NCBI GenBank assembly: GCA_039817275.1
Contig: JBCBWB010000001.1
Location: 25,344 to 89,343, forward strand
Source: Cyanobacteria bacterium J06648_1
GTDB taxonomy: Bacteria > Cyanobacteriota > Cyanobacteriia > Cyanobacteriales > Xenococcaceae
Length of the DNA stretch: 64,000 nucleotides
Direction: 5' to 3'
The translations under genes and the position numbers were made by a program. Positions 6,582 through 64,000 of the stretch are shown in pieces. The notes beneath the pieces are model-generated. The model did not search any database, had not been told where the DNA came from, and was given only the letters and a program-made list of their open reading frames with translations. Every line of letters begins with the position of its first letter. The first letter of the stretch is position 1.

Positions 6582-9014
6582 ATGACGGTTATTACAGTTA
6601 CTAACAACTCTGATTACGGCAGCGGAACTCTTAGACAGGCAGTTTTAGATGCTCAATCGGGAGACACCATTAAGTTTGATTCTAGTCTAAGCAATCAGAA
6701 AATCACTCTCAGCAGTGGTCTATGGCTCAACAAAAGTTTGACTTTTGATGGTGCAGATGCTCCCAATCTAACTATTAGTGGCGGTAATACATCCAATATT
6801 TTCTGGATGGGTGGGGTTGATGCCAGTCTAGAATTAAACGTCAAAAATTTGACCCTTGCCGACAGCTACTATGAAGCCGCAGCGGGGGGAGCAATTTATG
6901 CCCAAGACAACAGCATTATCAATATCGATAACGTTGACTTTATTGGTAACGTCTCTGATGGTGGGGCAATCCATGCTCAACAGGGCAGCTACATTACCGT
7001 TAATAACAGCAATTTTGACAGTAACGACGGGGCGAGCATCAGTGATAAAGAATTCGCGACGGGGGCAATTAGTCTTTTTGCTTTTGGCGAACTAAGAGTT
7101 AGCGACAGTACCTTTACTAATAATAAAGGCTTCAATGGTGGAGCAATCCACGTCACCTCTAGCGATCTCTTTGTGGAAAATTCCACCTTTATTGGCAACG
7201 ACTCTACTCCAGGCAAAGATCGAATCAACTATATTCCTGGTGCGGGGGGAGCGATTTATGCCGATGCGGCTACTGTACCTCGCGACGAAAAATTCTATGG
7301 CTTGCTGCCCGAACACGAACTACAGGGCGAGCAACAAGGGGGAATAATTTCCGTCAACAACAGCTACTTTGAAAAGAATAGAGCATCAGGACAGGGTGGA
7401 GCATTGGCACTCTGGGGCTACTCCCAAGATGAGGTCTTTGTTACCAACAATGTCATCGTCGATAACGAAGTCATTCTTAATAAGGACAACATGGCTGAAG
7501 GCGGCGGTGTCTGGCTGATGGGCTACGGTACGGTAGAAAATAATACTATTGCCAACAACAGATCCGAAGACAAAGGTGGTGGACTGTTTATTTGGGGAGA
7601 AGTACCCACAACCGTTACCAATACGACTTTTTCCAATAACCAAGCCGCTAAGGGTGGCGCAATCTACAGCGACATTTGGGATACTCAGCTCAACGTCAAC
7701 GATAGTAATTTTGATTCTAATTCTGCCTCAGTTGAAGGGGGAGTTCTCTACACCAACAAAATTCGTCCTGTTTATATCGAAAATTCTCAAATCAGCAACA
7801 ATACAGCAGCCGACATTGCCAACGTCAACAACAGTAGCGATCTTTCAGGCTTTACTTATGACGCTGGTTCACCCCAAGTAAATCTTGAGTCTCCAGTAGA
7901 GCAAAGTTTCACTCCTGAGCCTATACCCGAAGTGGTTGACCCAGCTCCTGTAGAGCAAAGCTTTACTCCTGAGCCTGTACCCGAAGTGGTTGACCCAACT
8001 CCTGTAGAGCAAAGTTTCACTCCTGAGCCTGTACCCGAAGTGGTTAACCCAGCTCCTGTAGAGCAAACCTATGAACCCAGCAATTTCAATCCTTTCATCG
8101 ATTCGGGAACGGTCAAGTTAAGCTCAGATTCTCAGTTCGCTGGTAAGCCTAACTATACTCCTGCCGATAATACTGGTATGTATGTGTGGCAAACTGGTAA
8201 CACCTGGAATATTGAAGTAACGGGTGACTGGGATGCTTCCCACTTCAGAGGCAAGATCGTTGCCGACCAAGCAATTCAAAATGTAACTGAGCAAAGTTTT
8301 GAAGCTAATGACTCTGTCTGGCACACAGATGCTTCCCACCATTCGATTGAATTTTCCATGATTGTGGGCAACGATTGGACAGACGGCATTTCCTTCGATG
8401 TAGCTTATCAGGCAGATGCGACTCTGTATCTAGAAATGGAAAATGGCGAAGCTTTACCAATTAAAATTGGTTCTGCAATGATCGACGGTTACAATCTTGA
8501 TTCGGTAGTTACCACTCCCACCGTCGAGCCTAGCTACAGTCCTGAGCCTCAGCCCGAAGTGGTTTATGCAGCGCCAGTCGAGCAAAACTATGGTGATAAT
8601 AATTTAATGTCAGCACCTATCTCGGCAGGCTTAGAACTCAATCAGGATGCTCTGTTCTCTAGCAAACCCAGCTATAATCCCAGCGAGCAAAGTGGCTTGA
8701 TTGTCTGGAATACCGAAGATGTTTGGCATATGGAAGCCACGGGTACTCCCGCCACTGCTCACTATCGTGGCAAGATTGTTTCTGATCAGGTGATCGAAGA
8801 TTTATCCACCTTTAGCTTTGAAGGAAGTGATAGCCTTCAGTATGCAGATGACACTTATAAAGTAGTGGAATTCTCGATGATTGTGGCCAACTCTGGCGTA
8901 GACGGTATCTCGTTTAAAGCTCCTGATAATGCTTCGGTGTTCTTAGAGTTGGAAGACAGCAATAATGTTCCTGTACAGGCGGGAACTTCTCTCCAAGAGA
9001 TTAATTTGGTTTAA
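6582..9014 (+). CDS. parallel beta-helix protein with Pmp-type (FxxN / GGAI) repeats, proline-rich linkers and a duplicated C-terminal module
   Basis: 810-aa ORF. The N-terminus VTNNSDYGSGTLRQAVLDAQSGDTIKF is typical of CSLREA / choice-of-anchor-Q type beta-helix proteins. GGAIY/GGAIH tetrapeptides recur, each preceded by FxxN. There is no obvious signal peptide. Confidence 0.7.
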   Translation: MTVITVTNNSDYGSGTLRQAVLDAQSGDTIKFDSSLSNQKITLSSGLWLNKSLTFDGADAPNLTISGGNTSNIFWMGGVDASLELNVKNLTLADSYYEAAAGGAIYAQDNSIINIDNVDFIGNVSDGGAIHAQQGSYITVNNSNFDSNDGASISDKEFATGAISLFAFGELRVSDSTFTNNKGFNGGAIHVTSSDLFVENSTFIGNDSTPGKDRINYIPGAGGAIYADAATVPRDEKFYGLLPEHELQGEQQGGIISVNNSYFEKNRASGQGGALALWGYSQDEVFVTNNVIVDNEVILNKDNMAEGGGVWLMGYGTVENNTIANNRSEDKGGGLFIWGEVPTTVTNTTFSNNQAAKGGAIYSDIWDTQLNVNDSNFDSNSASVEGGVLYTNKIRPVYIENSQISNNTAADIANVNNSSDLSGFTYDAGSPQVNLESPVEQSFTPEPIPEVVDPAPVEQSFTPEPVPEVVDPTPVEQSFTPEPVPEVVNPAPVEQTYEPSNFNPFIDSGTVKLSSDSQFAGKPNYTPADNTGMYVWQTGNTWNIEVTGDWDASHFRGKIVADQAIQNVTEQSFEANDSVWHTDASHHSIEFSMIVGNDWTDGISFDVAYQADATLYLEMENGEALPIKIGSAMIDGYNLDSVVTTPTVEPSYSPEPQPEVVYAAPVEQNYGDNNLMSAPISAGLELNQDALFSSKPSYNPSEQSGLIVWNTEDVWHMEATGTPATAHYRGKIVSDQVIEDLSTFSFEGSDSLQYADDTYKVVEFSMIVANSGVDGISFKAPDNASVFLELEDSNNVPVQAGTSLQEINLV
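7893..8070 (+). repeat. 54-bp in-frame tandem repeat x3 plus a partial fourth copy (PVEQSFTPEPxPEVVDPx linker)
   Basis: Units start at 7893, 7947 and 8001 and are near-identical at DNA level. A degenerate linker copy (VEPSYSPEPQPEVVYAAPVEQNY) recurs at about 8524-8590. Confidence 0.9.
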
Positions 9015-25757: not shown

Positions 25758-25924
25758 ATTAGCTTTATAATATGAATCTTAAAAATCCTCACCATTCATG
25801 AAGTGTTGTGATGCCCGCCAATGTAGCCCAGTATATTAAGGCTTGGCTTTTATGTCAGTATCTAAAAACCAGTTTCAACTGTTTAATTTATTGAGCCGAT
25901 AAGTAAGACTCTTGTACGGGAGGA

Positions 25925-26291
25925 GTATCCTAAAGGATACCGCTTCGCATATGAGGAAGTCGTAACGTCCTCATCAGGCGAGCGACCCACAGAGCCGCGG
26001 GCGCATTCGCGCCCAGTGCCAGCGAAGCTGGTCAGATGCTTCGCATCGCGCTCAAAGTTGCTTCGCAACGCTGGCGCAATGCGCCGTTCGCGCGGAAGCG
26101 AAGCTTCCTAGTCGTGCGAGGCCTCTGGCTTCTAGCCCGCCAGGGCGGACTGCCCCGAAGGGGCTACGACGACGATCTGCCGCATAACAAAGGCTTCGCC
26201 TTAGAGCCTCTTTTAGAGGCGATGGTGCAACGCACCGTGCTGCGGCGCAAGGGAATGCGCGAGATTGGGGGTTGGGGGAAAGTTCCCCCAA
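25925..26291. repeat. GC-rich island of at least 14 concatenated mini-hairpins (mosaic of small dispersed modules)
   Basis: Perfect short stems at 25925-40, 25951-74, 25999-26014, 26019-31, 26035-47, 26057-69, 26073-85, 26094-108, 26152-64, 26190-202, 26206-20, 26224-36, 26245-60 and 26272-91. GCGAAGC/GCTTCGC occurs six times. Individual modules recur at 42.9, 46.3 and 47.2 kb. Confidence 0.8.
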
Positions 26292-26385
26292 TACAGATCT
26301 TATCTTTAAAGATAACTTCTATAGGGCAGAAAAAGATGCCAAGTCTTTTATCTAATTCGCATTAGACGTAATCAGTCATCATCAA

Positions 26386-44625: not shown

Positions 44626-44652
44626 TAATTCCCTTGCCTGGTTGAACGGATA

Positions 44653-44701
44653 GTTGATGGTTGATAGTTGATGGTTGATGGTTGATGGTTGATAGTTAAT
44701 A
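44653..44701. repeat. uninterrupted GTTGATG/GTTGATA heptamer tandem array (7 units)
   Basis: Units start at 44653, 44660, 44667, 44674, 44681, 44688 and 44695. The array fills the gap between the convergent stops at 44625 and 44703. Confidence 0.9.
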
Positions 44702-46956: not shown

Positions 46957-47152
46957 ATTTTTAAAAGTTTTTTAAATTAACGGTCGGTTGATTTAATAGA
47001 TTTGCTTTGTAACAGATAATTTATATTTGCATCTATCTTAGGATTGATAAATGCTATGGCAAAATTGTATATCCACCCAAATTATTTATAAAGTTTTCAA
47101 CAACTAACATCTAATTCAGCCTTGCTGTCGCCAAAAAAACGACGGTAATTTA

Positions 47153-47355
47153 GTCACAGATTACTCCGCGCACAAAGCGGAGCTTTGCCAGTCTCCGCAG
47201 CACGTACGTGCAGTCCGCCGCCAAGGCGGCTAGCAAATCTTCGATTTGCGCGAGATGATGAGGGCGGTGCTTACGCACCTGACCGTCCGAAGGACGGCAC
47301 TGGACGCATTCGCGTCTGCGCCTCGCAAACGACGGAGCCTGCTGTGACCGTTGGT
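47153..47355. mobile_element. composite element: arms of the 50-nt hairpin element separated by 157 nt of seven further mini-hairpins
   Basis: The arms 47153-69 and 47327-55 match the reverse complement of 9112-9161 at 16/17 and 28/29 positions. Internal hairpins lie at 47164-82, 47200-11, 47217-30, 47233-49, 47266-79, 47283-97 and 47303-16. Confidence 0.6.
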
Positions 47356-47572
47356 CAAATCGCTCAGATAAACTTCTCTGTTACTCTATTGAGAATTGAC
47401 AGCAAGAATCAAAATTACCCCGATGTCCATAGCGTGCAATCATTCATTGGTTGTAAAGAAGCATAATTGTTGTTCAGAACTATACTCACTCTAGACAGCA
47501 ACATTTAGACGATTTCTGGTTTAATATTTCTAGGCTACGGCAAATACTTACCTTTGTTAGGCAATAATACTT

Positions 47573-49560: not shown

Positions 49561-49973
49561 TGATGAGGGTTAATAAAAGATTAAATTAAGGAAAAAAAGT
49601 TTTAGCGATTTTGACAGGATGGATTTCCTGATCTCAATAACCATCTCAGGCTTTGATGGCTATTTAATACCTGAGCTTAAGCTAGCGATATGTAAGATCT
49701 GCACTCATAGCTGTATACTTACTTATCTACATATATTCTGACATCTGACAAAATTATTATCCCTAGATATACCGTCTCATCTTGGAGAATCTAGTCGACT
49801 CGATAGACAACTGCCTTAAGCAGTAGCGATCGCAACAACGCAATCATCATGATAAGTATCATCTGATACAAATTTCTGCCAAATTGTAAAAAAATTTCTA
49901 ATTTTTTACAACAAGATGAGAAAATCTGTGAAGGATAAATGAAACATATTGAATACTTTTATTAGGTAAAATC

Positions 49974-51908
49974 ATGCTAATCAACGGTAATGCAGGTAAT
50001 AATAGATTAATAGGTACATCAGGAGATGATACCTTAAATGGTCTGGGCGGTGCTGATAGCCTGGTTGGTAGAGCGGGAGATGATTCCTTAGTCGGAGGAG
50101 GAGGAAATGATACTCTGCGCGGCGGTTTAGGAGAAGATATTCTTTTAGGCGGAGCTGGCAACGATCTAATCAGCTTTAATGTTGGTGGTAAATCCGTTGA
50201 CGGCGGAGCAGGAAATGACACAGTATCGCTCAATTTTGCTCCCGAATCTGATGATTTTACTCTAATTTATAACAGCACCGATGGTGGAGTAACTAGCGAC
50301 GGTATCCTGAGCGGAACTCGTATTGAGGGTGTCGAGCAGGTAAATGTTAGATCTGGTTCGGGTGAAGACAGTATCAACACTTCGGGAGCGTCTATTGGCG
50401 GCACGATTATCACCAACAATGGTGCTGACCTAATTATCGCCAGCGAGGGCGATGATAGTATTGATGGCGGTTCTGGTGATGACACTATCAGTGGTGGTAA
50501 TGGAGACGATAGTATTGACGGCGGAGTCGGCGCCGATATTATTAACGGTCAAGATGGTGATGATGTAATTACCTTTGGCGGAGGTGCCAAAACTGTTGAC
50601 GGTGGTGGTGGAAGCGATCGCATCGTACTAGACTTCTCAAACCTCGATGAAGATTTTGTTCTGACTTACAATCAGTTTGAAGAAGCCAGTCCCACAGTTG
50701 GAGGCATTCTAGACGGTACAGAAATTGAGGAAATTCAGCAGGTTGATGTTGAATCAGGTGCAGGAAACGACCTGATTGATATAGCCGTAGCAACGGTTGG
50801 CAGCACGCTCCTGGGCGGTGCGGGCTTAGATTCTCTAATTGGCGGTTCGGGAGACGATACCCTTGATGGTGGTGCGGATAACGATATCTTTTTTGGTAAT
50901 GCAGGTAGCGATGAAATTATCGGTGGTGGCGGAGACGAAGACGTTGCCGTCTTTGCTGGCAGTGTAGACGACTACGAAATTACCTTGGGCGAAGAAACTG
51001 TAACTTTAGAAATTGATGAGGATATCGATACCTTGACCGATATCGATTTTCTGCGGTTTGATGATGGCGATATCGAAGTTGCAACCGAAGAATTTTTCGA
51101 CCTCGAACAGCGTGCAGAACGCGAAGCTATTAGTGCAGCAGCCCGTGCAGCAGCAGAGGCAGAGGCAGAAGCCGAAGCGGAGGAAGAAGCAGAGGATAAC
51201 GAAGATCCTGATGCTGACGACTCCGTTGAAGATGACGAAGATACTGATGCCGATGCTGATACAGACACCGACGATGAGGATGCTGATGCCGATGCTGATA
51301 CAGACACTAACGACGAAGATGCAGACGCAGAAGAAGATGCAGAACTAGAAGAAGATTCCGACGCTGAAACTTCCGATACAGTACAAGATGTGGATCTAGG
51401 TGGTTTGGTAGATGCTGATGCTACCGATGGTGAAGAAGGTGAACCTGTCTTTCAACTTGTAAATGTAGACGGTTCGAGCCAGTTTTATACCACTAGTGAA
51501 ACAGAAAGAGATTTAATTCTGGAGAGTGATTCTAGTTTTGAATCTAGAGGGGTTTCTTTCCTCGGTGCTGAGGCACCATCAGAGGGTGATGAGTTGGCAG
51601 GGATTTCTTCTGTATCTCGCTTCCTAAATACTGATAATGATACTTATCTCTATACAACAGACGACAATGAGATAGCAGCAATCAACAGTAATCTAGATAA
51701 TTTCGTCTTTGAGGGTACTGCCTACTATGCCTTTGATAGCCAGGAAGCAGGAACTATACCTGTCTATCGCGTTTATAACAGCGAGCTTGACCAACACTCC
51801 TTTACTACCTCGGTAGCAGAACGAGATAGTCTAATCAGTGCTGACTTTGTTCAGCAAGGCGGAGAAGACGGTATTGCTTTCTATGTCGAACCTGCGACCG
51901 AACTATAA
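49974..51908 (+). CDS. RTX-type (GGxGxD nonapeptide) calcium-binding protein with an acidic low-complexity spacer and a C-terminal triple-motif domain
   Basis: Many GGAGNDxL/GGSGDDTI nonapeptides and no signal peptide. A D/E/A-rich block spans about 51130-51400. The C-terminal repeats have the form F/YTT...ERD (QFYTTSETERDLI, YLYTTDDNEIAAI, HSFTTSVAERDSLI). Confidence 0.8.
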   Translation: MLINGNAGNNRLIGTSGDDTLNGLGGADSLVGRAGDDSLVGGGGNDTLRGGLGEDILLGGAGNDLISFNVGGKSVDGGAGNDTVSLNFAPESDDFTLIYNSTDGGVTSDGILSGTRIEGVEQVNVRSGSGEDSINTSGASIGGTIITNNGADLIIASEGDDSIDGGSGDDTISGGNGDDSIDGGVGADIINGQDGDDVITFGGGAKTVDGGGGSDRIVLDFSNLDEDFVLTYNQFEEASPTVGGILDGTEIEEIQQVDVESGAGNDLIDIAVATVGSTLLGGAGLDSLIGGSGDDTLDGGADNDIFFGNAGSDEIIGGGGDEDVAVFAGSVDDYEITLGEETVTLEIDEDIDTLTDIDFLRFDDGDIEVATEEFFDLEQRAEREAISAAARAAAEAEAEAEAEEEAEDNEDPDADDSVEDDEDTDADADTDTDDEDADADADTDTNDEDADAEEDAELEEDSDAETSDTVQDVDLGGLVDADATDGEEGEPVFQLVNVDGSSQFYTTSETERDLILESDSSFESRGVSFLGAEAPSEGDELAGISSVSRFLNTDNDTYLYTTDDNEIAAINSNLDNFVFEGTAYYAFDSQEAGTIPVYRVYNSELDQHSFTTSVAERDSLISADFVQQGGEDGIAFYVEPATEL

Positions 51909-52389
51909 TCAGAAATTACTAACCGCAACAAATTTAATAAATCACTAGGACAGTGAATATAGGCTAGGTGAGGTAGATGCTGGGATTTCTACTTTCCTAG
52001 CTTTTTTTTCGCTCTAAGAATTATTCGATCCAAGTTTGGAGAACTGTCCAATTTTGTGCTGACTGTAGCGAATATTACACTATGAAGATTTCGTGTTGTT
52101 AGAAGATGCTCGACACAAACATGATACAAATACAGGGAAGGCGCTAATCCCCCTAATTAAAAGGTTTCAGGGTTAATATCTCGAAATAATTAGTGAATGT
52201 TTATCTTAACGTTTACAAATTTGACATTGAAACGAATACATTTATTCGGTCTAAGATACCTGTTCGATAAACAAAGGGAATTAGAGGCAAAAGATTTTAA
52301 TTACTGGCAAAATCTCTCCTGAATTTGGAGAGGACGATCAATCCGACATCAAAAGATCCACCAAATCTATCTCAACGACAAACAAAAAA

Positions 52390-54234
52390 ATGGATATCAA
52401 TTTTGGTCAAGTTGTACTGGTTAAGGATATTAATCCCAATGTCACAAATGGCTATTACGGGGGTGTTTATCCCCAAAGCTCTTTTCCAGATGGTCTTATT
52501 GAATTTGATGACCAGCTTTATTTTTCCGCCGACAACGGCGTAAATGGCGATGAACTATTTGTTAGTAATGGAACGGCAGAAGGGACGCAACTGCTGATAG
52601 ATCTTAATCCTGGTTCGAGTAACTATGGCTTTGCCTATAGCTCAACTGTCAGTTACCTGACCGAGTTCAACGACAAGCTTTATTTCTCGGCTAACGACGG
52701 CGAAAGCGGGAGAGAATTATTTGTTAGCGATGGCACAGCAGAAGGTACTCAACTACTAGTAGATTTACGTCCTGGTTCGGGCAATTATGACTACGGTTCT
52801 GGCTACAGCTATAGCTCTTATCCTGGAGATTTGACTGAGTTTAACGGCAGACTTTATTTCTCGGCTGATGATGGTGAAAATGGCAGAGAATTATTTGTTA
52901 GTGATGGTACAGCAGAAGGTACGCAACTGCTAGTAGATCTCAATCCTAATTCGGGCTATGGCTATAATTCTGGTTCTTATCCTGATAACTTTACCGAGTT
53001 TAACAGCAGACTTTATTTCTCTGCGGACAACGGCGAAAGTGGCAACGAAATATTTGTTAGTGACGGTACAGCAGAAGGTACGCAACTGCTGGTAGATCTA
53101 CGTCCTGGTTCGAGCAGCTATGGCTATGATTATGGTTCTAATCCTAGTGACTTTACAGAATTCAACGGTAAGCTCTATTTCGCTGCGGATAATGGTGAAA
53201 GTGGGAATGAACTATTTGTCACTGACGGAACGGCAGAAGGGACTCAGCTACTAGTAGATCTGCGTCCTGGTTCGAGTAACTATGGCTATAGCTACGGTTC
53301 CAACCCCAGCGATCTAGTTGAATTTAACGGTAAGCTTTATTTCACTGCGGATAATGGTGAAAGTGGCAGAGAACTGTTCGCTACGGATGGGACGGCAGAG
53401 GGAACTCAACTAGTTGCCGATTTGCGCCCTGGTTCGAGTAGTTACGGCTATAGTTACGGCTCCGATCCTAGTGATTTAACCGTAGTTGGCGATGAGCTAT
53501 TTTTCTCCGCCCGTAATAGAGAAGTAGGAACTGAACTATTTAAACTAACTTTTGAGGATACATCAATCTCAATTGACGGTACAAATGGCTCGGATAATCT
53601 CTTGGGCGGCGATCGCTCTGAGCAAATTCAGGCTTTGAATGGTCAAGATACGGTTGATAGCGGTGGCGGTAACGATACAATCGATGGCGGTAATGGCGAT
53701 GACTCCCTGAGTAGTTTTTCTGGCGACAACAGCCTAATTGGCAATAACGGCAACGATACCCTCGATAGCGGCGGCGGCAACGATATTCTCAGCGGTGGCA
53801 ACGGTAGTGATGTTCTCACTTCAGGCAGCGGCAACGATAGCTTGAGTGGCGGCGGGAATAACGACACTCTCGATGGGGGAGATGGTATCGATACTTTGTT
53901 TGGGGATAATGGGGATGATCGCCTGGTTGGCGGTAGTGGTGACGACTTCCTGACGGGAGGCAGCGGGAATGACTTTCTCGACGGTGGAATCGGCTTCGAC
54001 AACCTCGAAGGCGGCAATGGAGACGATCTGTTTGTCCTCAGTTCTGGTGATGGGACAGATACGATCACCGACTTTAATGTTAATGGTGGCGATCGCCTTG
54101 GTTTGGCTGATGGACTACAGTTTGAGTTTCTGACTTTCTCTGGCAACGATATTTTATCGGCAGGAGAGGTCTTAGCTAGTCTTGATGGAGTCAATACAGA
54201 ACAGCTAACGGCAGTTCAGTTTCGAGAAATCTAG
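52390..54234 (+). CDS. ELWxxDG-repeat (predicted beta-propeller) protein fused to an RTX calcium-binding C-terminal module
   Basis: Six full ELF(V/A)(S/T)[10 protein letters not shown](V)DL(R/N)PGS units plus a terminal partial one, then GGxGxD nonapeptides. No signal peptide. Confidence 0.8.
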
Positions 54235-54419
54235 TAGCTGGTAGAAGGGGGTTTGCTTCGTCGAATTCATTCTTGAGTAGGCAATCAAGATAATTCAAGA
54301 ATAATTACAAGATCTTTAGTTACTGGCAAAGCTTTCTTAAAAAAGGCGATCGCCCTTTGGGTACGCTGCGCGATCGCACTCAATACAAGTAATTAATTTA
54401 AACTATCTCAAAAAAACAA

Positions 54420-56423
54420 ATGGATACTAATTTAGGTCAAGTCGTATTAGTCAAAGATATTAATCCGATAGTTTCTAATGCAGAAAATGGCTCTTCTAGT
54501 ACTTATGATTCTTTTCCTCAAAATCTTACTGAATTTGACAACAAACTGTTTTTTTCTGCCGACAATGGCGAAAGCGGTACGGAATTGTTTGTTAGTGATG
54601 GCACGGTGGAAGGCACTCAGCTAGTAGTAGACCTCAATCCAGGAGTAGATCCCTTTGGCTATTTTATTTACAGTTCTTCTCCTAGCGATTTTGCAGAATT
54701 GAACGACAAGCTGTATTTCGCTGCTGATAATGGCGAAGATGGCAGAGAATTGTTTGTCAGTGACGGAACCGCAGAGGGTACTCAGCTACTAGTAGATCTC
54801 AATCCTGGTAGTAGCGATTATGGTTTTGCCTACAGTTCTTCTCCCAGCGGTTTGACTGAATTGAACGGCAAACTGTATTTCGCTGCTGATAATGGCGAAA
54901 GTGGTACGGAATTATTTGTTAGTGATGGAACCGCAGAGGGTACTCAGCTACTGGTAGATCTCAATCCTGGCAGTAGCGATTATGGTTTTGCCTACAGCTC
55001 TGATCCTGCCTACATTGCTGAGGTCAACGGCAAACTGTTTTTTGCCGCGGATAATGGTGAGAGTGGTACAGAGTTATTTGTCAGTGACGGAACCGCAGAG
55101 GGTACTCAGCTGCTAATAGATCTTAATCCTGGTAGTAACAATTATGGTTCTGCCTATAGTTCTTTTCCTAGCGGCTTTAATGAATTTAACGACAAATTGT
55201 ATTTCACCGCCAGAGGTGAAGATGGTGGTTTTAATTTATATGTCAGTGATGGAACCGCATCAGGTACTCAAGTAATCTTCGATCTAAATCCAGGTTCTAA
55301 TAGATATCGTGTTCCTAATTCCTACTACAGTGAGCTAATCGTATTTGACGACCAGCTTTATTTCGTTGCGGAAGATAACGAAAGTGGTAGAGAGCTGTTT
55401 GTTAGCGACGGCACCGCAGAAGGTACTCAACTGCTTGTAGGTCTTAACCCTGGGGGCAACGATTATGTCAGCTATAGTTCCGCTCCAGGCGACTTTGCTG
55501 TATTTGACGACCAGCTTTATTTTGCTGCTGATGATGGCGAAAACGGCAGAGAATTGTTCGTCAGTGATGGAACGGCAGAGGGTACTCAATTAGTAGCAGA
55601 TCTCAACCCTGGAGAAGATAATTATGGTACTCGCGGTTCATATCCCAGGTATCTTACTGTTGCTGGCAACGAGCTGTTTTTTAACGCCGATAATGGTGAA
55701 ACTGGAGCTGAACTATTCAAATTAACAATTGAGGATCTGACTCCAGAAGCACCAATATTAATCGATGGTACAAATGGCTCGGATAATCTCTTGGGCGGCG
55801 ATCGCTCTGAGCAAATTCAGGCTTTGAGTGGTCAAGATACGGTTGATAGTGGTGGCGGTAACGATACAGTCGATGGCGGTAATGGGGATGATCGCCTGAG
55901 TAGTTTTTCTGGCAACAACAGCCTAATTGGTAATAACGGCAACGATACCCTCGATAGCGGCGACGGTGCCGATCTTCTAGATGGTGGCAACGGCAGTGAT
56001 GTTCTTAGTTCGGGTAGTGGTAACGATAGTTTGACTGGCGGCGGCAATAATGACACTCTCGATGCTGGCGACGGTATCGATACTTTGTTTGGCGATAATG
56101 GCGATGATCGCCTCTTTGGTGGTGGTGGTGATGATCGCCTCTTTGGTGGCAATGGTAATGACTTCCTCGATGGAGGAATTGGTCACGATACCCTCAACGG
56201 CAGCAATGGTGATGATCTGTTTATCCTGAGAACTGGTGATGGGACAGATACGATCGCCGACTTTAATCTCAACGGTGGCGATCGCCTTGGTTTGGCTGAT
56301 GGACTCCAGTTTGAGTCTCTGACTTTCTCTGGCAACGATATTTTATCGGGTGGAGAGGTTTTAGCTAGTCTTGATGGAGTCAATACAGAACAGCTAACGG
56401 CAGTTCAATTTCGAGAAATCTAG
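54420..56423 (+). CDS. ELWxxDG-repeat / RTX protein, tandem paralogue of 52390-54234
   Basis: Seven full [14 protein letters not shown] units plus a partial one. The C-terminal ~219 aa are collinear with the upstream paralogue without indels (constant offset of 2189 nt). Confidence 0.8.
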   Translation: MDTNLGQVVLVKDINPIVSNAENGSSSTYDSFPQNLTEFDNKLFFSADNGESGTELFVSDGTVEGTQLVVDLNPGVDPFGYFIYSSSPSDFAELNDKLYFAADNGEDGRELFVSDGTAEGTQLLVDLNPGSSDYGFAYSSSPSGLTELNGKLYFAADNGESGTELFVSDGTAEGTQLLVDLNPGSSDYGFAYSSDPAYIAEVNGKLFFAADNGESGTELFVSDGTAEGTQLLIDLNPGSNNYGSAYSSFPSGFNEFNDKLYFTARGEDGGFNLYVSDGTASGTQVIFDLNPGSNRYRVPNSYYSELIVFDDQLYFVAEDNESGRELFVSDGTAEGTQLLVGLNPGGNDYVSYSSAPGDFAVFDDQLYFAADDGENGRELFVSDGTAEGTQLVADLNPGEDNYGTRGSYPRYLTVAGNELFFNADNGETGAELFKLTIEDLTPEAPILIDGTNGSDNLLGGDRSEQIQALSGQDTVDSGGGNDTVDGGNGDDRLSSFSGNNSLIGNNGNDTLDSGDGADLLDGGNGSDVLSSGSGNDSLTGGGNNDTLDAGDGIDTLFGDNGDDRLFGGGGDDRLFGGNGNDFLDGGIGHDTLNGSNGDDLFILRTGDGTDTIADFNLNGGDRLGLADGLQFESLTFSGNDILSGGEVLASLDGVNTEQLTAVQFREI

Positions 56424-59501: not shown

Positions 59502-60644
59502 CTATCTTTCCTCCATGGGAATATAGGGAATTTTGTGCTTCCCCGTATAAACCTGAGTCGGACGAAAAATGCGGTTAACGGCTAATTGTTCTTTCCAGTG
59601 GGCGAGCCACCCTGCCACACGAGCGATCGCAAAAATGGGGGTGAATAAATCGCTAGGAATACCCAGCTTGCTGTAGACCAAACCAGAATAAAAATCGACG
59701 TTAGGATAAATGCCTTTATGACCGAGTTTTGCCTCAATTACCTGCTCAAGTTTGAGAGCCAGGTCATAATAGCGATCGTGTCCCGTTTCGCTAAACAGCT
59801 CTACAGCAAGCTCTTGCAAGATCTTAGCTCTGGGATCTTTAACCTTATATACTCGATGCCCAAAACCCATAATTTTCTGCTTGTTGGCAATTAAATTAGC
59901 AACATAAGGTTCAACTTCGCTCACTGAACCAATATTCTCTAGCATAATCAACACTTCTTCGTTCGCTCCACCATGAAGCGGACCTGCCAAAGTCCCAACC
60001 GCCGAAGCAACTACAGCATAGGGATCTGTCAGTGTCGAAGCAGTTACCATTGCCGAAAAAGTCGAGGCGTTAATCGTATGTTCTGCATGTAGAGTCAAAC
60101 AGGTATCAAAAATTCTCGCCTCCAGAGGATGAGGCACCTTCTCCGTCAGCATGTAGAGAAAGTTGGTGGCATAGTCTAAATTATCATTGGGCTGAATTGC
60201 ATCGTTACCCCGACGCATCTGGTGAAACGCAGCTACCATCGTCGGAATTTTTGCCAGAATTCTGACTACTGCTTTACGAATATATTCAGGATCGTCCAAA
60301 GCCCGACGAGCGTAAAATAAACCTAGCGCTGCCGCCGATGTTTGCAAAGCATCCATGGGATGTCCTGATTCAGGACAGCACTTCATCATGTCCCGAATGC
60401 GGTATTTAATCCGACGGTGAAACAGAATTTGAGTCTGAAATTCCTTTAGCTGCTGGGCGCTGGGCAACTGCCCCCAGATCAGCAAATACGCGGTTTCGAG
60501 AAAACAGCCTCGTTTAGTTAGCTCTTCGATCGCAATCCCACGATACTCCAAAATCCCTTTTTGACCATCAACAAAACTAATGCTAGATTTCGTTGCGGGG
60601 ATGCCTTCTAAACCTGGCTTGTATTCGCAAAATGTTGCCGTCAT
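59502..60644 (-). CDS. gltA: citrate synthase
   Basis: LHAEHTINASTF, GPLHGGANE, GFGHRVYK.DPR, and PNVDFYSG. Confidence 0.92.
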   Translation of the reverse strand: MTATFCEYKPGLEGIPATKSSISFVDGQKGILEYRGIAIEELTKRGCFLETAYLLIWGQLPSAQQLKEFQTQILFHRRIKYRIRDMMKCCPESGHPMDALQTSAAALGLFYARRALDDPEYIRKAVVRILAKIPTMVAAFHQMRRGNDAIQPNDNLDYATNFLYMLTEKVPHPLEARIFDTCLTLHAEHTINASTFSAMVTASTLTDPYAVVASAVGTLAGPLHGGANEEVLIMLENIGSVSEVEPYVANLIANKQKIMGFGHRVYKVKDPRAKILQELAVELFSETGHDRYYDLALKLEQVIEAKLGHKGIYPNVDFYSGLVYSKLGIPSDLFTPIFAIARVAGWLAHWKEQLAVNRIFRPTQVYTGKHKIPYIPMEER

Positions 60645-61170
60645 AGACTTTCCTGTATAAATTTTTAAGATAATATATGTGTTGTATGTTCTGAAAATAC
60701 CCTAGATCGAATCTCCGAAGGGTCGTGAAAGTTACCGAAAATCAGATCTTGATCTACAAATGTACGCCTCGTGATTTCATTTGTAGCTACCAGACTTACA
60801 CTTTTTGAGATAGATGCTATATAAAGCAGTATACTATTATGTCGTAGGCTAGAGGAAAAGCTAAATCTATGGCATCAGTACCATTTCCCTCATCATAGCT
60901 TGGGTCTGTCCCCAATATTTAGCTACAAAAATTCAGTGACAGAATTTTGCTCCTGTTCAAATTATTTGTGCCAGAAAGACCAAAAGAGCGATCGTCAGCT
61001 CGACAAGCTAAGCTAACTATTTAAAATTTCTAACAATCTGGTTAACTTACCAACGGTGATCCGTATCATAATAAAAGGTCACTGACATTATCACGTCCTT
61101 ACATAAACTCATATCTTTAACTTAGAGATATACCTTAATACACACTCACTTTAATTAAAGGAGACAATAT

Positions 61171-62472
61171 TTGGTTTCTACAACTTCCTTTAAAACAGCC
61201 AAATCAGAAGAAATTTTTAATGCTGCTCAAAAACTAATGCCTGGTGGGGTAAGTTCCCCCGTCCGTGCCTTCAAATCCGTTGGTGGTCAGCCGATTGTCT
61301 TTGACCACGTCAAGGGAGCTTACATCTGGGATGTTGATGGTAATCAATACATCGATTATGTCGGCACCTGGGGACCTGCGATCTGTGGTCATGCAAACCC
61401 TGTCGTCATTGAAGCTCTACATGCAGCTCTCGAAAAAGGTACTAGCTTTGGCGCTCCCTGTACCTTAGAGAACGTCCTAGCAGAGATGGTGATTGATGCC
61501 GTTCCTAGTATCGACGTGGTGCGCTTTGTCAACTCAGGTACGGAAGCCTGTATGTCAGTGCTGCGGCTAATGCGAGCCTTTACTGGCAGAGAAAAAATCG
61601 TCAAGTTTGAAGGCTGCTATCACGGTCACGCAGACATGTTCTTGGTCAAAGCAGGATCAGGAGTGGCAACTCTCGGTTTACCCGATTCTCCAGGGGTACC
61701 AAAATCGACGACTGTCAACACTCTGACCGCTCCCTATAACGATTTAGAGACAGTCAAAAAACTCTTTGCGGAAAATCCCGATCAAATTGCAGGTATTATT
61801 CTCGAACCCGTAGTCGGTAACTCTGGTTTCGTAACCCCCGATGCTGGATTTCTCGAAGGATTGAGAGAAATCACCAAAGAACATGGTGCGCTGCTAGTCT
61901 TTGACGAAGTGATGACTGGTTTCCGCATCTCCTACGGTGGCGCACAGGCTAAGTTTGGCGTGACTCCCGACCTTACAACTCTAGGTAAGGTAATTGGTGG
62001 CGGTTTGCCCGTAGGTGCTTACGGTGGTCGTGCCGATATCATGTCCATGGTTGCACCCGCAGGTCCTATGTATCAAGCAGGTACGCTTTCGGGTAATCCT
62101 CTGGCAATGACAGCGGGAATAAAAACCCTAGAATTGCTCAGTAAGCCTGGCACTTACGAACAGCTTGAGCGCATCACGGCTAAATTAGCGTCGGGTTTAC
62201 TCTCCGTAGCCAGAGAAGCAGGACACGAAGTAACTGGCGGCAATATTAGCGCCATGTTTGGCATGTTCTTTACTGCTCAAGAAGTTCATAACTACGATGA
62301 TGCCAAAACTTCAGACATGAAGAAATTTGCTCGCTTCCATCGCGGCATGTTAGAAAGAGGCATCTATCTGGCTCCTTCTCAGTTTGAGGCTGGCTTCACT
62401 TCTCTGGCTCATACCGAGGAAGATGTTGAGCGCACTTTAGCAGCAGCAAAAGCAGTTTTAGCGGAAATTTAA
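61171..62472 (+). CDS. hemL: glutamate-1-semialdehyde 2,1-aminomutase
   Basis: The TTG start is preceded by AGGAG (61151-55). The N-terminus (M)[28 protein letters not shown] matches the HemL N-terminus. [11 protein letters not shown] and the PLP lysine region TLGKVIGGG are present. Confidence 0.92.
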
Positions 62473-62520
62473 GCTAGGAAACCTAACTTAAGCTTGAATT
62501 TAATACAACATAAACAATTA

Positions 62521-62543
62521 GGCGGGGTTACACCCGTCTTTTT
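62521..62543 (+). terminator. candidate intrinsic terminator of hemL
   Basis: GGCGGG-GTTACA-CCCGTC stem (one G.U pair) followed by TTTTT, 49 nt after the hemL stop. Confidence 0.5.
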
Positions 62544-62568
62544 GCTGAAAGGCGGTAAATCCGCTTGC

Positions 62569-62803
62569 TTAGATCGATAAAGCTGCATATTGAAGAGATT
62601 GCTCAAGATCGTTTAATTCCAAGTCTGGATATTCTGCCAAGATCTCCTCGAAAGGTTTACCATTGGCTACTAAATTCACAACTAAGGATACGGGGATACG
62701 CATCCCGCGAAACAAGACGTGCTACGCACGCTGTAACCTGTCCAGCCATAATCCGAGGATTGAAGGTGATACGCTCTAGATTTTCGAGTCGATAGTCATT
62801 CAT
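62569..62803 (-). pseudogene. DUF433-family small gene, frameshifted by a mini-hairpin insertion
   Basis: From ATG 62803 the reading is MNDYRLENLERITFNPRIMAGQ..., then a GC-rich hairpin. A different frame then reads RGMRIPVSLVVNLVANGKPFEEILAEYPDLELNDLEQSLQYAALSI* (stop at 62569-71). The total of 235 nt is not a multiple of 3. Confidence 0.65.
62713..62731. mobile_element. ~19-nt GC-rich mini-hairpin (CGTGC-GTA-GCACG on the coding strand) inside the DUF433 gene
   Basis: Removing 19 nt (or 28 nt) restores a single reading frame of 216 (or 207) nt. The stem and trinucleotide loop have the same style as the intergenic modules. Confidence 0.5.
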
Positions 62804-63370
62804 GTGATATTTTTGTCTCGAACGATAGAAAATATTTTCAGGTATTAGTGATTCATTAACCTTGGTCTATTAATTCAGAAGCATTAGATAGAAGAATGTA
62901 AGGCTATTTCTTGATGCTAAGATTAGTAATACATATTGGCTATCGCTTATAAATACGTCGATAAGCAGCCTCTTTGTTTTTAATAAAATTGACCTGCAAA
63001 GATTTGGAGGAATTATCCATGTTGTTTCGGGCGATCGCTTCATTAATGAAGATTTAACTATCATAAAGTTTTCCGTTTATTTGAGTATGGAATACTTTTA
63101 GACGCAGAGCATTTAAAGTTAAACCAAGTACTAGAAATTATGTTCCGTTTGTTTTTGTTGAAAATTTACGGATTCTGGGGAGATCCAGAAATTTGTCCTG
63201 TTTAAATTTAAATTCCTATGTATTTCTGAATTAGGCTCTACATCATTTTTCAAATGGTTACATTTTGAGCATAAACCGATTATATTTTACTGGGTCGATC
63301 GCTAATTACTATAATTGTTCTCAATAAAACCCTTTGCGCCTCTGCGTCTCTGCGCGAAACTAATCTGCAC

Positions 63371-63400
63371 AAAAAAAAAGGCAGGTAACTTACCCACCTT
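63371..63400 (-). terminator. intrinsic terminator of clpC
   Basis: On the minus strand, AGGTGGGTAA-G-TTACCTGCCT (8 Watson-Crick plus 2 wobble pairs) is followed by nine T, about 20 nt after the clpC stop. Confidence 0.6.
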
Positions 63401-63422
63401 TAGAATTCAATTATGTAATCAA

Positions 63423-64000
63423 CTAACGAGTTGCTTCTACCAACACCTGCTCTTTAACCGCAGTCACGGTAGTGTTGCCGTCTTCATCCAGGTCAACTAA
63501 AGCATTATCGCCATCGTTGACGCTACCAGTTAAAATCGCTTCGGCGAGACTATCTTCGAGTAGACGCATAATTGCGCGACGTAGAGGTCTAGCACCATAG
63601 CTAGGATCGAAGCCTTCCTCAATCACCTTGTCTTCAAAAGCAGTAGTTACTCCTAAAGTAATCTCGCGCTGTTCTTCTAGGCGATTAGAAATCTCTTTTA
63701 AGAGAATACTCGCAATCTGTCTGACTTCAGGTCTAGTCAACTGACGGAAGACAATAATCTCATCTAGTCGGTTGATAAATTCAGGGCGGAAATAGTTTTT
63801 CAACTCTTGATTTACCAATTCCTTAACACGGTTATACTGCGCTTCATCTTTGTCGCCAGAGAACTCAAATCCTAAGCCGCTACCGCCTTTTTCAATTACC
63901 TTAGACCCAATATTAGAGGTCATAATAATTACGGTATTTTTAAAGCTAACGGTGCGTCCTTGAGCATCTGTTAGACGACCATCATCCAGCATTTGCAGCA
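63423..64000 (-). CDS. clpC: ATP-dependent Clp protease ATP-binding subunit ClpC, C-terminal part (5-prime end outside window)
   Basis: [45 protein letters not shown]...[33 protein letters not shown]...GARPLRRAI. The frame stays open to the window edge. Confidence 0.85.

Follow-up and report, generated by a model that had tools for sequence, protein, structure and literature searches.

In the 64,000-nt stretch of cyanobacterial DNA analyzed here (the window), a 235-nt locus on the minus strand beside hemL carries the two halves of a DUF433 antitoxin-like gene in different reading frames, separated by a short hairpin-forming insertion. We consider it very probable that this locus is a decaying, orphaned antitoxin pseudogene, the fairly recent remnant of a DUF433/DUF5615 type II toxin-antitoxin pair, and that its insertion is not bypassed. 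A sequence-only reading of the same DNA had proposed that a DUF433-type gene was broken by a mini-hairpin of an intergenic repeat family, and had offered two outcomes, recent inactivation or some form of bypass or removal at the RNA or translation level. Comparison with relatives and strain-level polymorphism argues for the former, and the source of the inserted bases is a separate matter on which two explanations are weighed below.

The interrupted gene and its missing toxin

From the ATG at 62803, frame 0 opens with the 22 codons MNDYRLENLERITFNPRIMAGQ and continues past them as VTACVARLVSRDAYPRILSCEFSSQW up to a stop at 62657-62659, for a total of 48 codons, where the sequence-only reading had placed the stop after 39. 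The remainder of the gene lies in the +1 frame and reads, from a TTG at 62715, (L/M)FRGMRIPVSLVVNLVANGKPFEEILAEYPDLELNDLEQSLQYAALSI, i.e. (M)FRGMRIPV...QYAALSI, with its stop at 62569-62571; its C-terminal segment has 46 residues and not the 45 codons counted earlier. The two halves are separated by GTTACAGCGTGCGTAGCACGTCTTGTTT (62710-62737), within which a perfect hairpin, CGTGC-GTA-GCACG, occupies 62718-62730. When 19 nt are deleted, the resulting product matches Pfam DUF433 (PF04255) over the entire profile (positions 1-56 of 56, 73.6 bits, E=1e-20; the cut-off for membership is the Pfam gathering score of 23.6 bits). The C-terminal half alone matches positions 14-56 with 56.2 bits, and the N-terminal frame-0 open reading frame (ORF) alone gave no match to Pfam DUF433. 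The locus thus lacks the uninterrupted ORF of a DUF433 gene, as its halves are in different frames and a TAG lies within the insert in the +1 frame. The split of DUF433-like halves between two frames, the length of 235 nt and an antisense ORF at 62565-62795 had all been described from the sequence, and all three were confirmed.

The nearest intact relatives (L084 and L086) read GGACAGGCT followed directly by TGTATTCGCGG at the junction, and the window reads GGACAGG(T/C)T-ACAGCGTGCGTAGCACGTC(T/C)-TGT-TTCGCGG. Against these relatives, a 20-nt insertion combined with deletion, 3 nt further on, of the A in ATT (+19 overall) needs zero substitutions and a clean 19-nt insertion would cost three to four, so the lesion is best read from the alignments as a 20-nt insertion at GGACAGG(C)T^TGT plus a 1-nt deletion, which replaces the clean 19- or 28-nt insert suggested before. 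The insertion can be placed as TTACAGCGTGCGTAGCACGT at 62717-62736 (T-T haplotype, see below) or as ACAGCGTGCGTAGCACGTC(T/C) at 62715-62734 (C-C haplotype), and no target-site duplication accompanies it. The 58 relatives whose DNA was inspected all read GGN-CAR-GCN-TGY-ATH-CGN, ungapped; none carries the extra bases as ordinary in-frame coding sequence, the outcome that the sequence-only reading had named as refuting it. The insert is absent from these 58 and from all 3116 protein relatives, none of which is a true orthologous empty site. Because one base is also missing, no contiguous 19-nt removal restores the conserved Ala-Cys-Ile of the junction, the best outcomes being QVLF, QALF and QVTF.

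An origin of the extra bases in assembly or sequencing error is next to impossible: in runs X3 and X4 some unitigs do end around 62714-62755, but these breaks coincide with SNP (single-nucleotide polymorphism) sites in mixed populations, and independent assemblies agree with one another. An identical HemL protein led to two further contigs, one of a GenBank metagenome-assembled genome (MAG; L081, GCA_038531525.1) and one from Logan (L082). The insert is the same in each, and one base immediately 3′ of the hairpin differs from the window. The insert was likewise present in same-species contigs of eight marine or plastisphere metagenome runs (X1 to X8) from four studies, at 7-56x and with no indel variants. 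Two polymorphic sites define three haplotypes at 62736-62715, namely T-T (window, X1), T-C (L081, L082, X3) and C-C (X2, X5-X8); a coding C at 62736 gives GCT (Ala), as in all relatives, and the base at 62715 pairs with G62737 in an outer stem of the hairpin (G·U or G-C). All three haplotypes carry the insert, and it therefore predates the sampled strain diversity and is fixed in the species.

These two sites make up two of the five SNPs of the remnant. They are separated by exactly 21 nt and occupy matching positions on either side of the 19-nt core (YT-core-YT). Each varies between C and T, and of the four combinations that could arise three were seen; the pairing may be a coincidence or may reflect hairpin-associated mutation or conversion.

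A search among 5.8 billion proteins returned 3116 relatives of the DUF433 product at E<=1e-10, the closest of which (at most 93% identity, 82-93 aa) come from Pleurocapsa, Waterburya and marine cyanobacterial MAGs. Their junction reads ...IMAGQ-ACI-RGMRIPV without a gap, with Q22 and R26 invariant and A23, C24 and I25 at least 90% conserved, and each nearest relative then has a gene for a 120-aa DUF5615/Mut7-C/PIN-like protein 6-10 nt downstream. COG2442, the family of DUF433, is the predicted antitoxin of PIN toxins (Makarova 2009, PMC2701414), and COG2442-PIN pairs have been catalogued in Synechocystis, where stand-alone antitoxins are listed as well (Kopfmann 2016, PMC4963859). In the window, homology to the intact pairs begins some 120 nt ahead of the ATG and runs through codon 68, to ~62577; the last 13-14 antitoxin codons and the entire toxin gene are missing, and no PIN-like toxin gene lies adjacent downstream. 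A tblastn search of the window with the DUF5615 partner gave chance matches only, bearing out the earlier remark that the usual partner gene is absent. The locus therefore resembles orphan or decaying type II toxin-antitoxin loci (PMC2701414, PMC4963859) in being a DUF433 member whose relatives form antitoxin-toxin pairs, and it differs from the stand-alone Synechocystis antitoxins (PMC4963859) in that it is frame-broken and 3′-truncated, a pseudogene and not a solo antitoxin. No pre-insertion allele ending in ...YAALSI was present among the 5.8 billion proteins.

An intact DUF433 copy found in the same metagenomes was considered as a paralogue in the same genome and rejected, as its depth relative to the main contig varies from 0.3 to 1.5 between runs. 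Separately, three of the DUF433 relatives (P0035, P0041 and P0058) end or diverge at nearly the same point, after ...SLQY/KY, and independent breakage of DUF433 modules at the junction of antitoxin tail and toxin seems common.

Only 96 nt, containing terminator-like hairpins, separate the stop of the remnant from the convergent hemL. In the sister species, whose HemL is 97% identical, similarity ends at ~62550 after the hemL terminator and a cation ATPase gene follows, with no remnant. No intact DUF433 relative was found between hemL and clpC, and an orthologous empty site sought via HemL relatives was not found, gene order past hemL differing in every relative. Comparison of 62473-63423 with five other contigs (L087-L091) placed clpC downstream of hemL in the window and cation ATPase, endonuclease III or isoleucyl-tRNA synthetase genes elsewhere. 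The differing gene order, along with similarity that ends at the hemL terminator, marks the region downstream of hemL as a rearrangement hot-spot, and the locus is therefore a piece of a mobile toxin-antitoxin module, specific to this lineage, at a rearrangement-prone spot.

Constraint on the remnant and the question of bypass

Strain-level SNPs were compared across 60400-64000. There were 12 in the 1302 nt of hemL (0.9%; 10 third-position, 9 synonymous) and 3 in 578 nt of clpC, which was covered in part (0.5%; all synonymous), and the intergenic spacer between the remnant and clpC had 13 in 619 nt (2.1%). The remnant itself had 5 in 235 nt (2.1%), none of them third-position and at most one synonymous, which gives 0 of 5 third-position SNPs against 10 of 12 in hemL (Fisher p=0.003) and at best 1 of 5 synonymous against 12 of 15 in the neighbouring genes. 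The non-synonymous changes are R17Q, V/A23, V-to-I and P-to-L. The polymorphism of the remnant has the pattern of unconstrained, intergenic-like DNA.

Several observations weigh against a pseudogene. The SNP sample in the remnant is small (five sites), and the SNP at 62715 (TTG to CTG) is synonymous in the downstream +1 frame. Both halves are pristine: neither has acquired further stops or indels, and just two residues are specific to the lineage. The long-term ratio of non-synonymous to synonymous substitution rates (dN/dS) against intact relatives is 0.02-0.07, equal to that of intact-intact pairs; judged by sequence alone, a still-functional, recoded gene would be compatible with so low a ratio. 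A ribosome hop between valine codons, from GTT to GTC, would moreover give QVLFRGMRIPV in two of the three haplotypes. We read the pristine halves and the low dN/dS as suggesting that inactivation was recent relative to the divergence from known relatives (dS of at least 0.8), and on that scale the "recently inactivated" of the sequence-only reading stands.

That a functional DUF433 protein is nevertheless made, by a ribosome hop, a +1 frameshift or removal of the insert from the RNA, seems to us very improbable, even with both halves intact, a low dN/dS and a synonymous change at 62715 in the +1 frame. Frame-restoring codon pairs do exist, since GTA-to-GTC (7 nt) and CGT-to-CGC (10 nt) hops are available in all three haplotypes in addition to the GTT-to-GTC hop of 19 nt, but the majority haplotype has GCT in place of GTT, leaving the 19-nt hop without matched codons. 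No stop and no rare or unused codon follows any take-off codon (the next codons are ACA, GCA, CTT and CCT), so that the signals of programmed bypass are lacking. The gap could be bridged by a stable hairpin, the outer stem being supplied by a palindrome that surrounds the insertion point, which gives a bipartite RNA or single-stranded DNA fold of ~15 bp at -21 to -24 kcal/mol. This fold is, however, not significantly better than those of shuffled sequences (z -0.9 to -1.6). Every rescued product would lack the nearly invariant Ala-Cys-Ile, and the toxin partner is gone, leaving nothing to neutralise. As for removal from the RNA, no bacterial system is known that excises a 19-20-nt RNA segment. 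Precedents for translational bypass are T4 gene 60 and the 81 short inserts (byps) of Magnusiomyces mitochondria (Atkins 2016, PMC5009743), which the locus resembles only superficially, in having a short, GC-rich, hairpin-capable block that interrupts the frame; unlike them, the DUF433 remnant has population data that suggest no constraint. Rfam gave no match, at gathering or permissive thresholds, at the locus or at either of the two hairpin islands described below, and none of the RNA-seq runs searched contains the locus. The bypass or removal once offered as an alternative is thus not supported.

Taken together, these results point to the decay of an orphaned antitoxin. A type II pair of a DUF433 (COG2442) antitoxin and a DUF5615 (PIN-like) toxin would once have stood beside the hemL terminator; loss of the toxin would have made the antitoxin dispensable, and frame-breaking lesions could then have been tolerated and fixed. 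The inserted hairpin and its T-rich tail (CTTGTTTC) scored as terminator-like in the sense orientation and would, if anything, stall or terminate the sense transcript, and rescue at the RNA level or in translation is not expected.

Source of the inserted nucleotides

The 20 nt could have come from a replication template switch or complex indel, or from a mini-hairpin module copied or pasted into the gene. We regard the first, a one-off replication error (template switch, snap-back or complex deletion-insertion) at a palindrome with no mobile element involved, as plausible, if tentatively so. In intact genes the insertion point falls in the middle of a palindrome, ACAAG/CTTGT in 19 of the 58 relatives and AAGCTT in 34 (the slash marks the point). 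The final 9 nt of the insert (AGCACGTCC) are an inverted copy, at 7 of 9 positions, of the 9 nt directly upstream (GGACAGGCT; shuffle p ~0.05), a 1-nt loss nearby accompanies the event, as often in complex indels, and the insert is unique in all DNA searched. Against such an error, no local template of at least 8 nt exists within ±450 nt for the 5′ half of the insert, both arms of the inner hairpin are new sequence, and the statistics are marginal. The hairpin of the insert is itself mildly non-random; a perfect stem of at least 5 bp occurs in 3-5% of random or shuffled 20-mers.

The second source, a single module of a family of mobile mini-hairpin repeats inserted alone, is possible but somewhat doubtful, and it is compatible with the pseudogene verdict. 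The family itself is real, abundant and modular. Two GC-rich intergenic islands at ~25,900-26,300 and 47,152-47,358 (59-65% GC vs ~40% in the flanks) are chains of differing hairpins with stems of 5-7 bp and loops of 3-4 nt, mostly GC-GAA-GC or GC-TTC-GC. Contig depth in the metagenomes rises from the single-copy level of 8-47x to 1000-4750x over conserved segments of the islands, which therefore have roughly 100 copies per genome, and many joints occur at which paralogous copies have other internal modules. Island 1 has ~14 different mini-hairpins and conserved high-depth segments at 25934-25985 and 26272-26297, and its commonest short form joins 25951 to 26273. Island 2 has ends like terminal inverted repeats (GTCACAG...CTGTGAC) and a 12-nt palindrome GCACGTACGTGC at 47201-47212, and it also occurs as a short hairpin of ~54 nt (-21 kcal/mol). 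In strain X7, 196 nt of the island (47146-47341) are missing at single-copy depth. A 9-nt direct repeat, AAACGACGG, is present at 47137-47145 and 47327-47335. The two islands have 10-mers in common, in shuffled order and orientation.

A discrete 24-nt unit of this family, TCCTAAAGGATACCGCTTCGCATA, recurs in four genomes. From 25928-25951 of the window it is repeated exactly in an intergenic spacer of L089 (2499-2522); it is found beside a CTGACCT heptamer array in L093 (3717-3740) and also in L090 (4098-4121). With one mismatch, it forms a clean in-frame insertion of 24 nt (8 codons) near the start of a DUF5615 ORF in a related MAG (L004, 5267-5290), which reads MKF-FLKDTASHI-ADMG against MKFLADMG in four relatives. 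This L004 insertion has no target-site duplication, and its host DUF433-DUF5615 pair is otherwise intact. The recurrence of the unit and its in-frame insertion show that very small units of the mini-hairpin family move on their own and can enter coding DNA, in support of the general idea of the sequence-only reading.

The insert of the remnant shares the structural type of the family: a 5-bp GC-rich stem (6 bp with G·T) closed GC/GC, a G-N-A loop (GTA) and a length of 20 nt, close to one module period (16-22 nt). A GTGC-loop-GCAC hairpin is present in both islands, and no target-site duplication was found, as in L004. By sequence, however, it is identical to no recurring module or terminal segment. 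The best module match was 10 of 11 bases (GTGCGTAGCAC vs GTGCGTTGCAC, E ~1, background level), no second copy of the 19-mer was found at up to four substitutions in 820 kb of cyanobacterial DNA, and GCGNAGC occurs in the window no more often than chance predicts (27 observed vs 27.3 expected). Exact and fuzzy searches of the window and all compared loci with the exact hairpin and the 28-mer returned the locus itself only. Scans of metagenome and viral collections with the 19-mer gave one chance match each, on a high-GC contig and a 60%-GC contig of unrelated DNA of ~60% G+C, and are uninformative because the species is absent from both collections. Four whole metagenomes mapped on 60 nt around the insert likewise gave the locus only, a negative that carries no weight, since a positive control with the 24-nt unit demonstrated that the mapping has almost no sensitivity to units of 20-24 nt. 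Of the proposal that the hairpin belongs to an intergenic family, the abundant modular family thus stands, and membership of the insert is unproven, its hairpin being unique in the window.

Known repeat classes offer partial parallels. Small dispersed repeats (SDRs) of cyanobacteria, 21-27 nt long, were reportedly described by Elhai et al. in 2008 (in Genome Res 18:1484). They appear (see also PMC4390886 and PMC3116915) as very short hairpin modules that nest in one another and in minitransposons or heptamer arrays. SDRs insert precisely, without obvious target duplication, and the islands of the window and the 24-nt unit behave likewise. The DUF433 insert has the size and structure of an SDR, and it is present or absent with precise boundaries relative to homologous sequence (58 DNA relatives), but at 20 nt and so far in a single copy it may lack the dispersal of such repeats. 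REP/REPIN elements are palindromic repeats of 20-40 bp, mostly intergenic and downstream of genes, some within ORFs, and are known in cyanobacteria (PMC3116915, PMC3733652). The insert resembles them as a short palindrome within an ORF and differs in that it breaks the frame instead of being tolerated in frame and in having no canonical 5′ GTAG/CGTC tag-stem, its only GTAG being made up of the loop and the stem base that follows it. The window, the only DNA to which this negative applies, shows no RAYT gene, and the copy number of the insert in the DNA compared is 1. Rickettsia palindromic elements (RPEs) and miniature inverted-repeat transposable elements are repeats that land in coding DNA, the RPEs being ~150 bp long and in frame (review PMC10969869). 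The in-frame 24-nt event of L004 is a miniature analogue of these, from which the DUF433 insert, at 20 nt and out of frame, differs.

If the 20-nt hairpin is a single module of the family that entered the gene alone, an event of the same kind as that in L004, then Pleurocapsales-type cyanobacteria would have an active machinery that moves units of only ~20-24 nt, without target duplication, into intergenic nests and coding DNA; we hold this reading to be rather unlikely at present. A further extension, that inserts of this kind are tolerated through ribosomal bypass, is far less likely.

Feature coordinates, side observations and meaning

Coordinates of the remnant, its lesion and its surroundings are collected in Table 1.

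Table 1. Features of the DUF433 locus and its flanks (window coordinates; a strand is given where one was assigned)
Feature	Position	Strand	Basis
DUF433 (COG2442) antitoxin-like remnant in two frames, 13-14 codons short of 82-aa relatives	62569..62803	-	Profile match, alignments
N-terminal 22 codons, frame 0 (MNDYRLENLERITFNPRIMAGQ)	62738..62803	-	Translation
C-terminal 46 codons and stop, +1 frame (RGMRIPV...QYAALSI)	62569..62709	-	Translation, Pfam
20-nt insertion, placement ambiguous by 2 nt, absent from all intact relatives	62715..62736	-	DNA alignments
Mini-hairpin, G·T + CGTGC-GTA-GCACG, then CTTGTTTC	62717..62731	-	Hairpin and terminator scoring
1-nt deletion site (relatives TGT-A-TTCGC, window TGT-TTCGC)	62711..62712	-	Alignment with L084, L086
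Polymorphic site, coding T in window and X1; C in L081, L082 and X2-X8	62715	-	Contig comparison
Polymorphic site, coding T (GTT, Val) in window, L081 and X1; C in X2 and X5-X8	62736	-	Contig comparison
Upstream (promoter-side) DNA like that of intact DUF433-DUF5615 pairs	62804..62925	-	DNA alignment
hemL intrinsic terminator, last DNA common with the sister species; remnant starts just past	62520..62550	+	Terminator scoring, alignment

Other repeats and variants were noted in the window. Strain X8 has five substitutions within 13 nt (63024-63036), overlapping a HIP1 site (GCGATCGC, 63031-63038), which looks like a small replaced patch and not independent SNPs. A large repeat-rich coding region at 49900-56300 holds arrays of a 159-162-nt unit (52446-53451 and 54476-55626), nonapeptide repeats of GGxGxD type (RTX-like, 27 nt) and a 2.19-kb duplication (53457-54102 vs 55634-56291). 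Tandem repeats of 54 nt (family D6) occur in coding DNA at 7891-8070 and 8518-8589, and at 44649-44700 GATAGTTGATGGTT is repeated with a period of 14 nt, in a small array that resembles the short tandem repeats of cyanobacteria.

For annotation, DUF433 pseudogene (toxin-antitoxin remnant) is the appropriate label, and gene calls should be avoided both for the antisense ORF and for the two short ORFs on the sense strand. The DUF433 locus is real but ordinary; the mini-hairpin family and the in-frame insertion in L004 are more interesting. What the locus provides is a dated, population-fixed case of a micro-insertion that forms a hairpin and lies in coding DNA, in a genome rich in tiny hairpin repeats. 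If the 20-mer is indeed a module of that family, this locus, like the 24-nt insertion of L004, would offer a clean "before and after" comparison, and the two could be used to learn how such tiny elements move and choose their targets.

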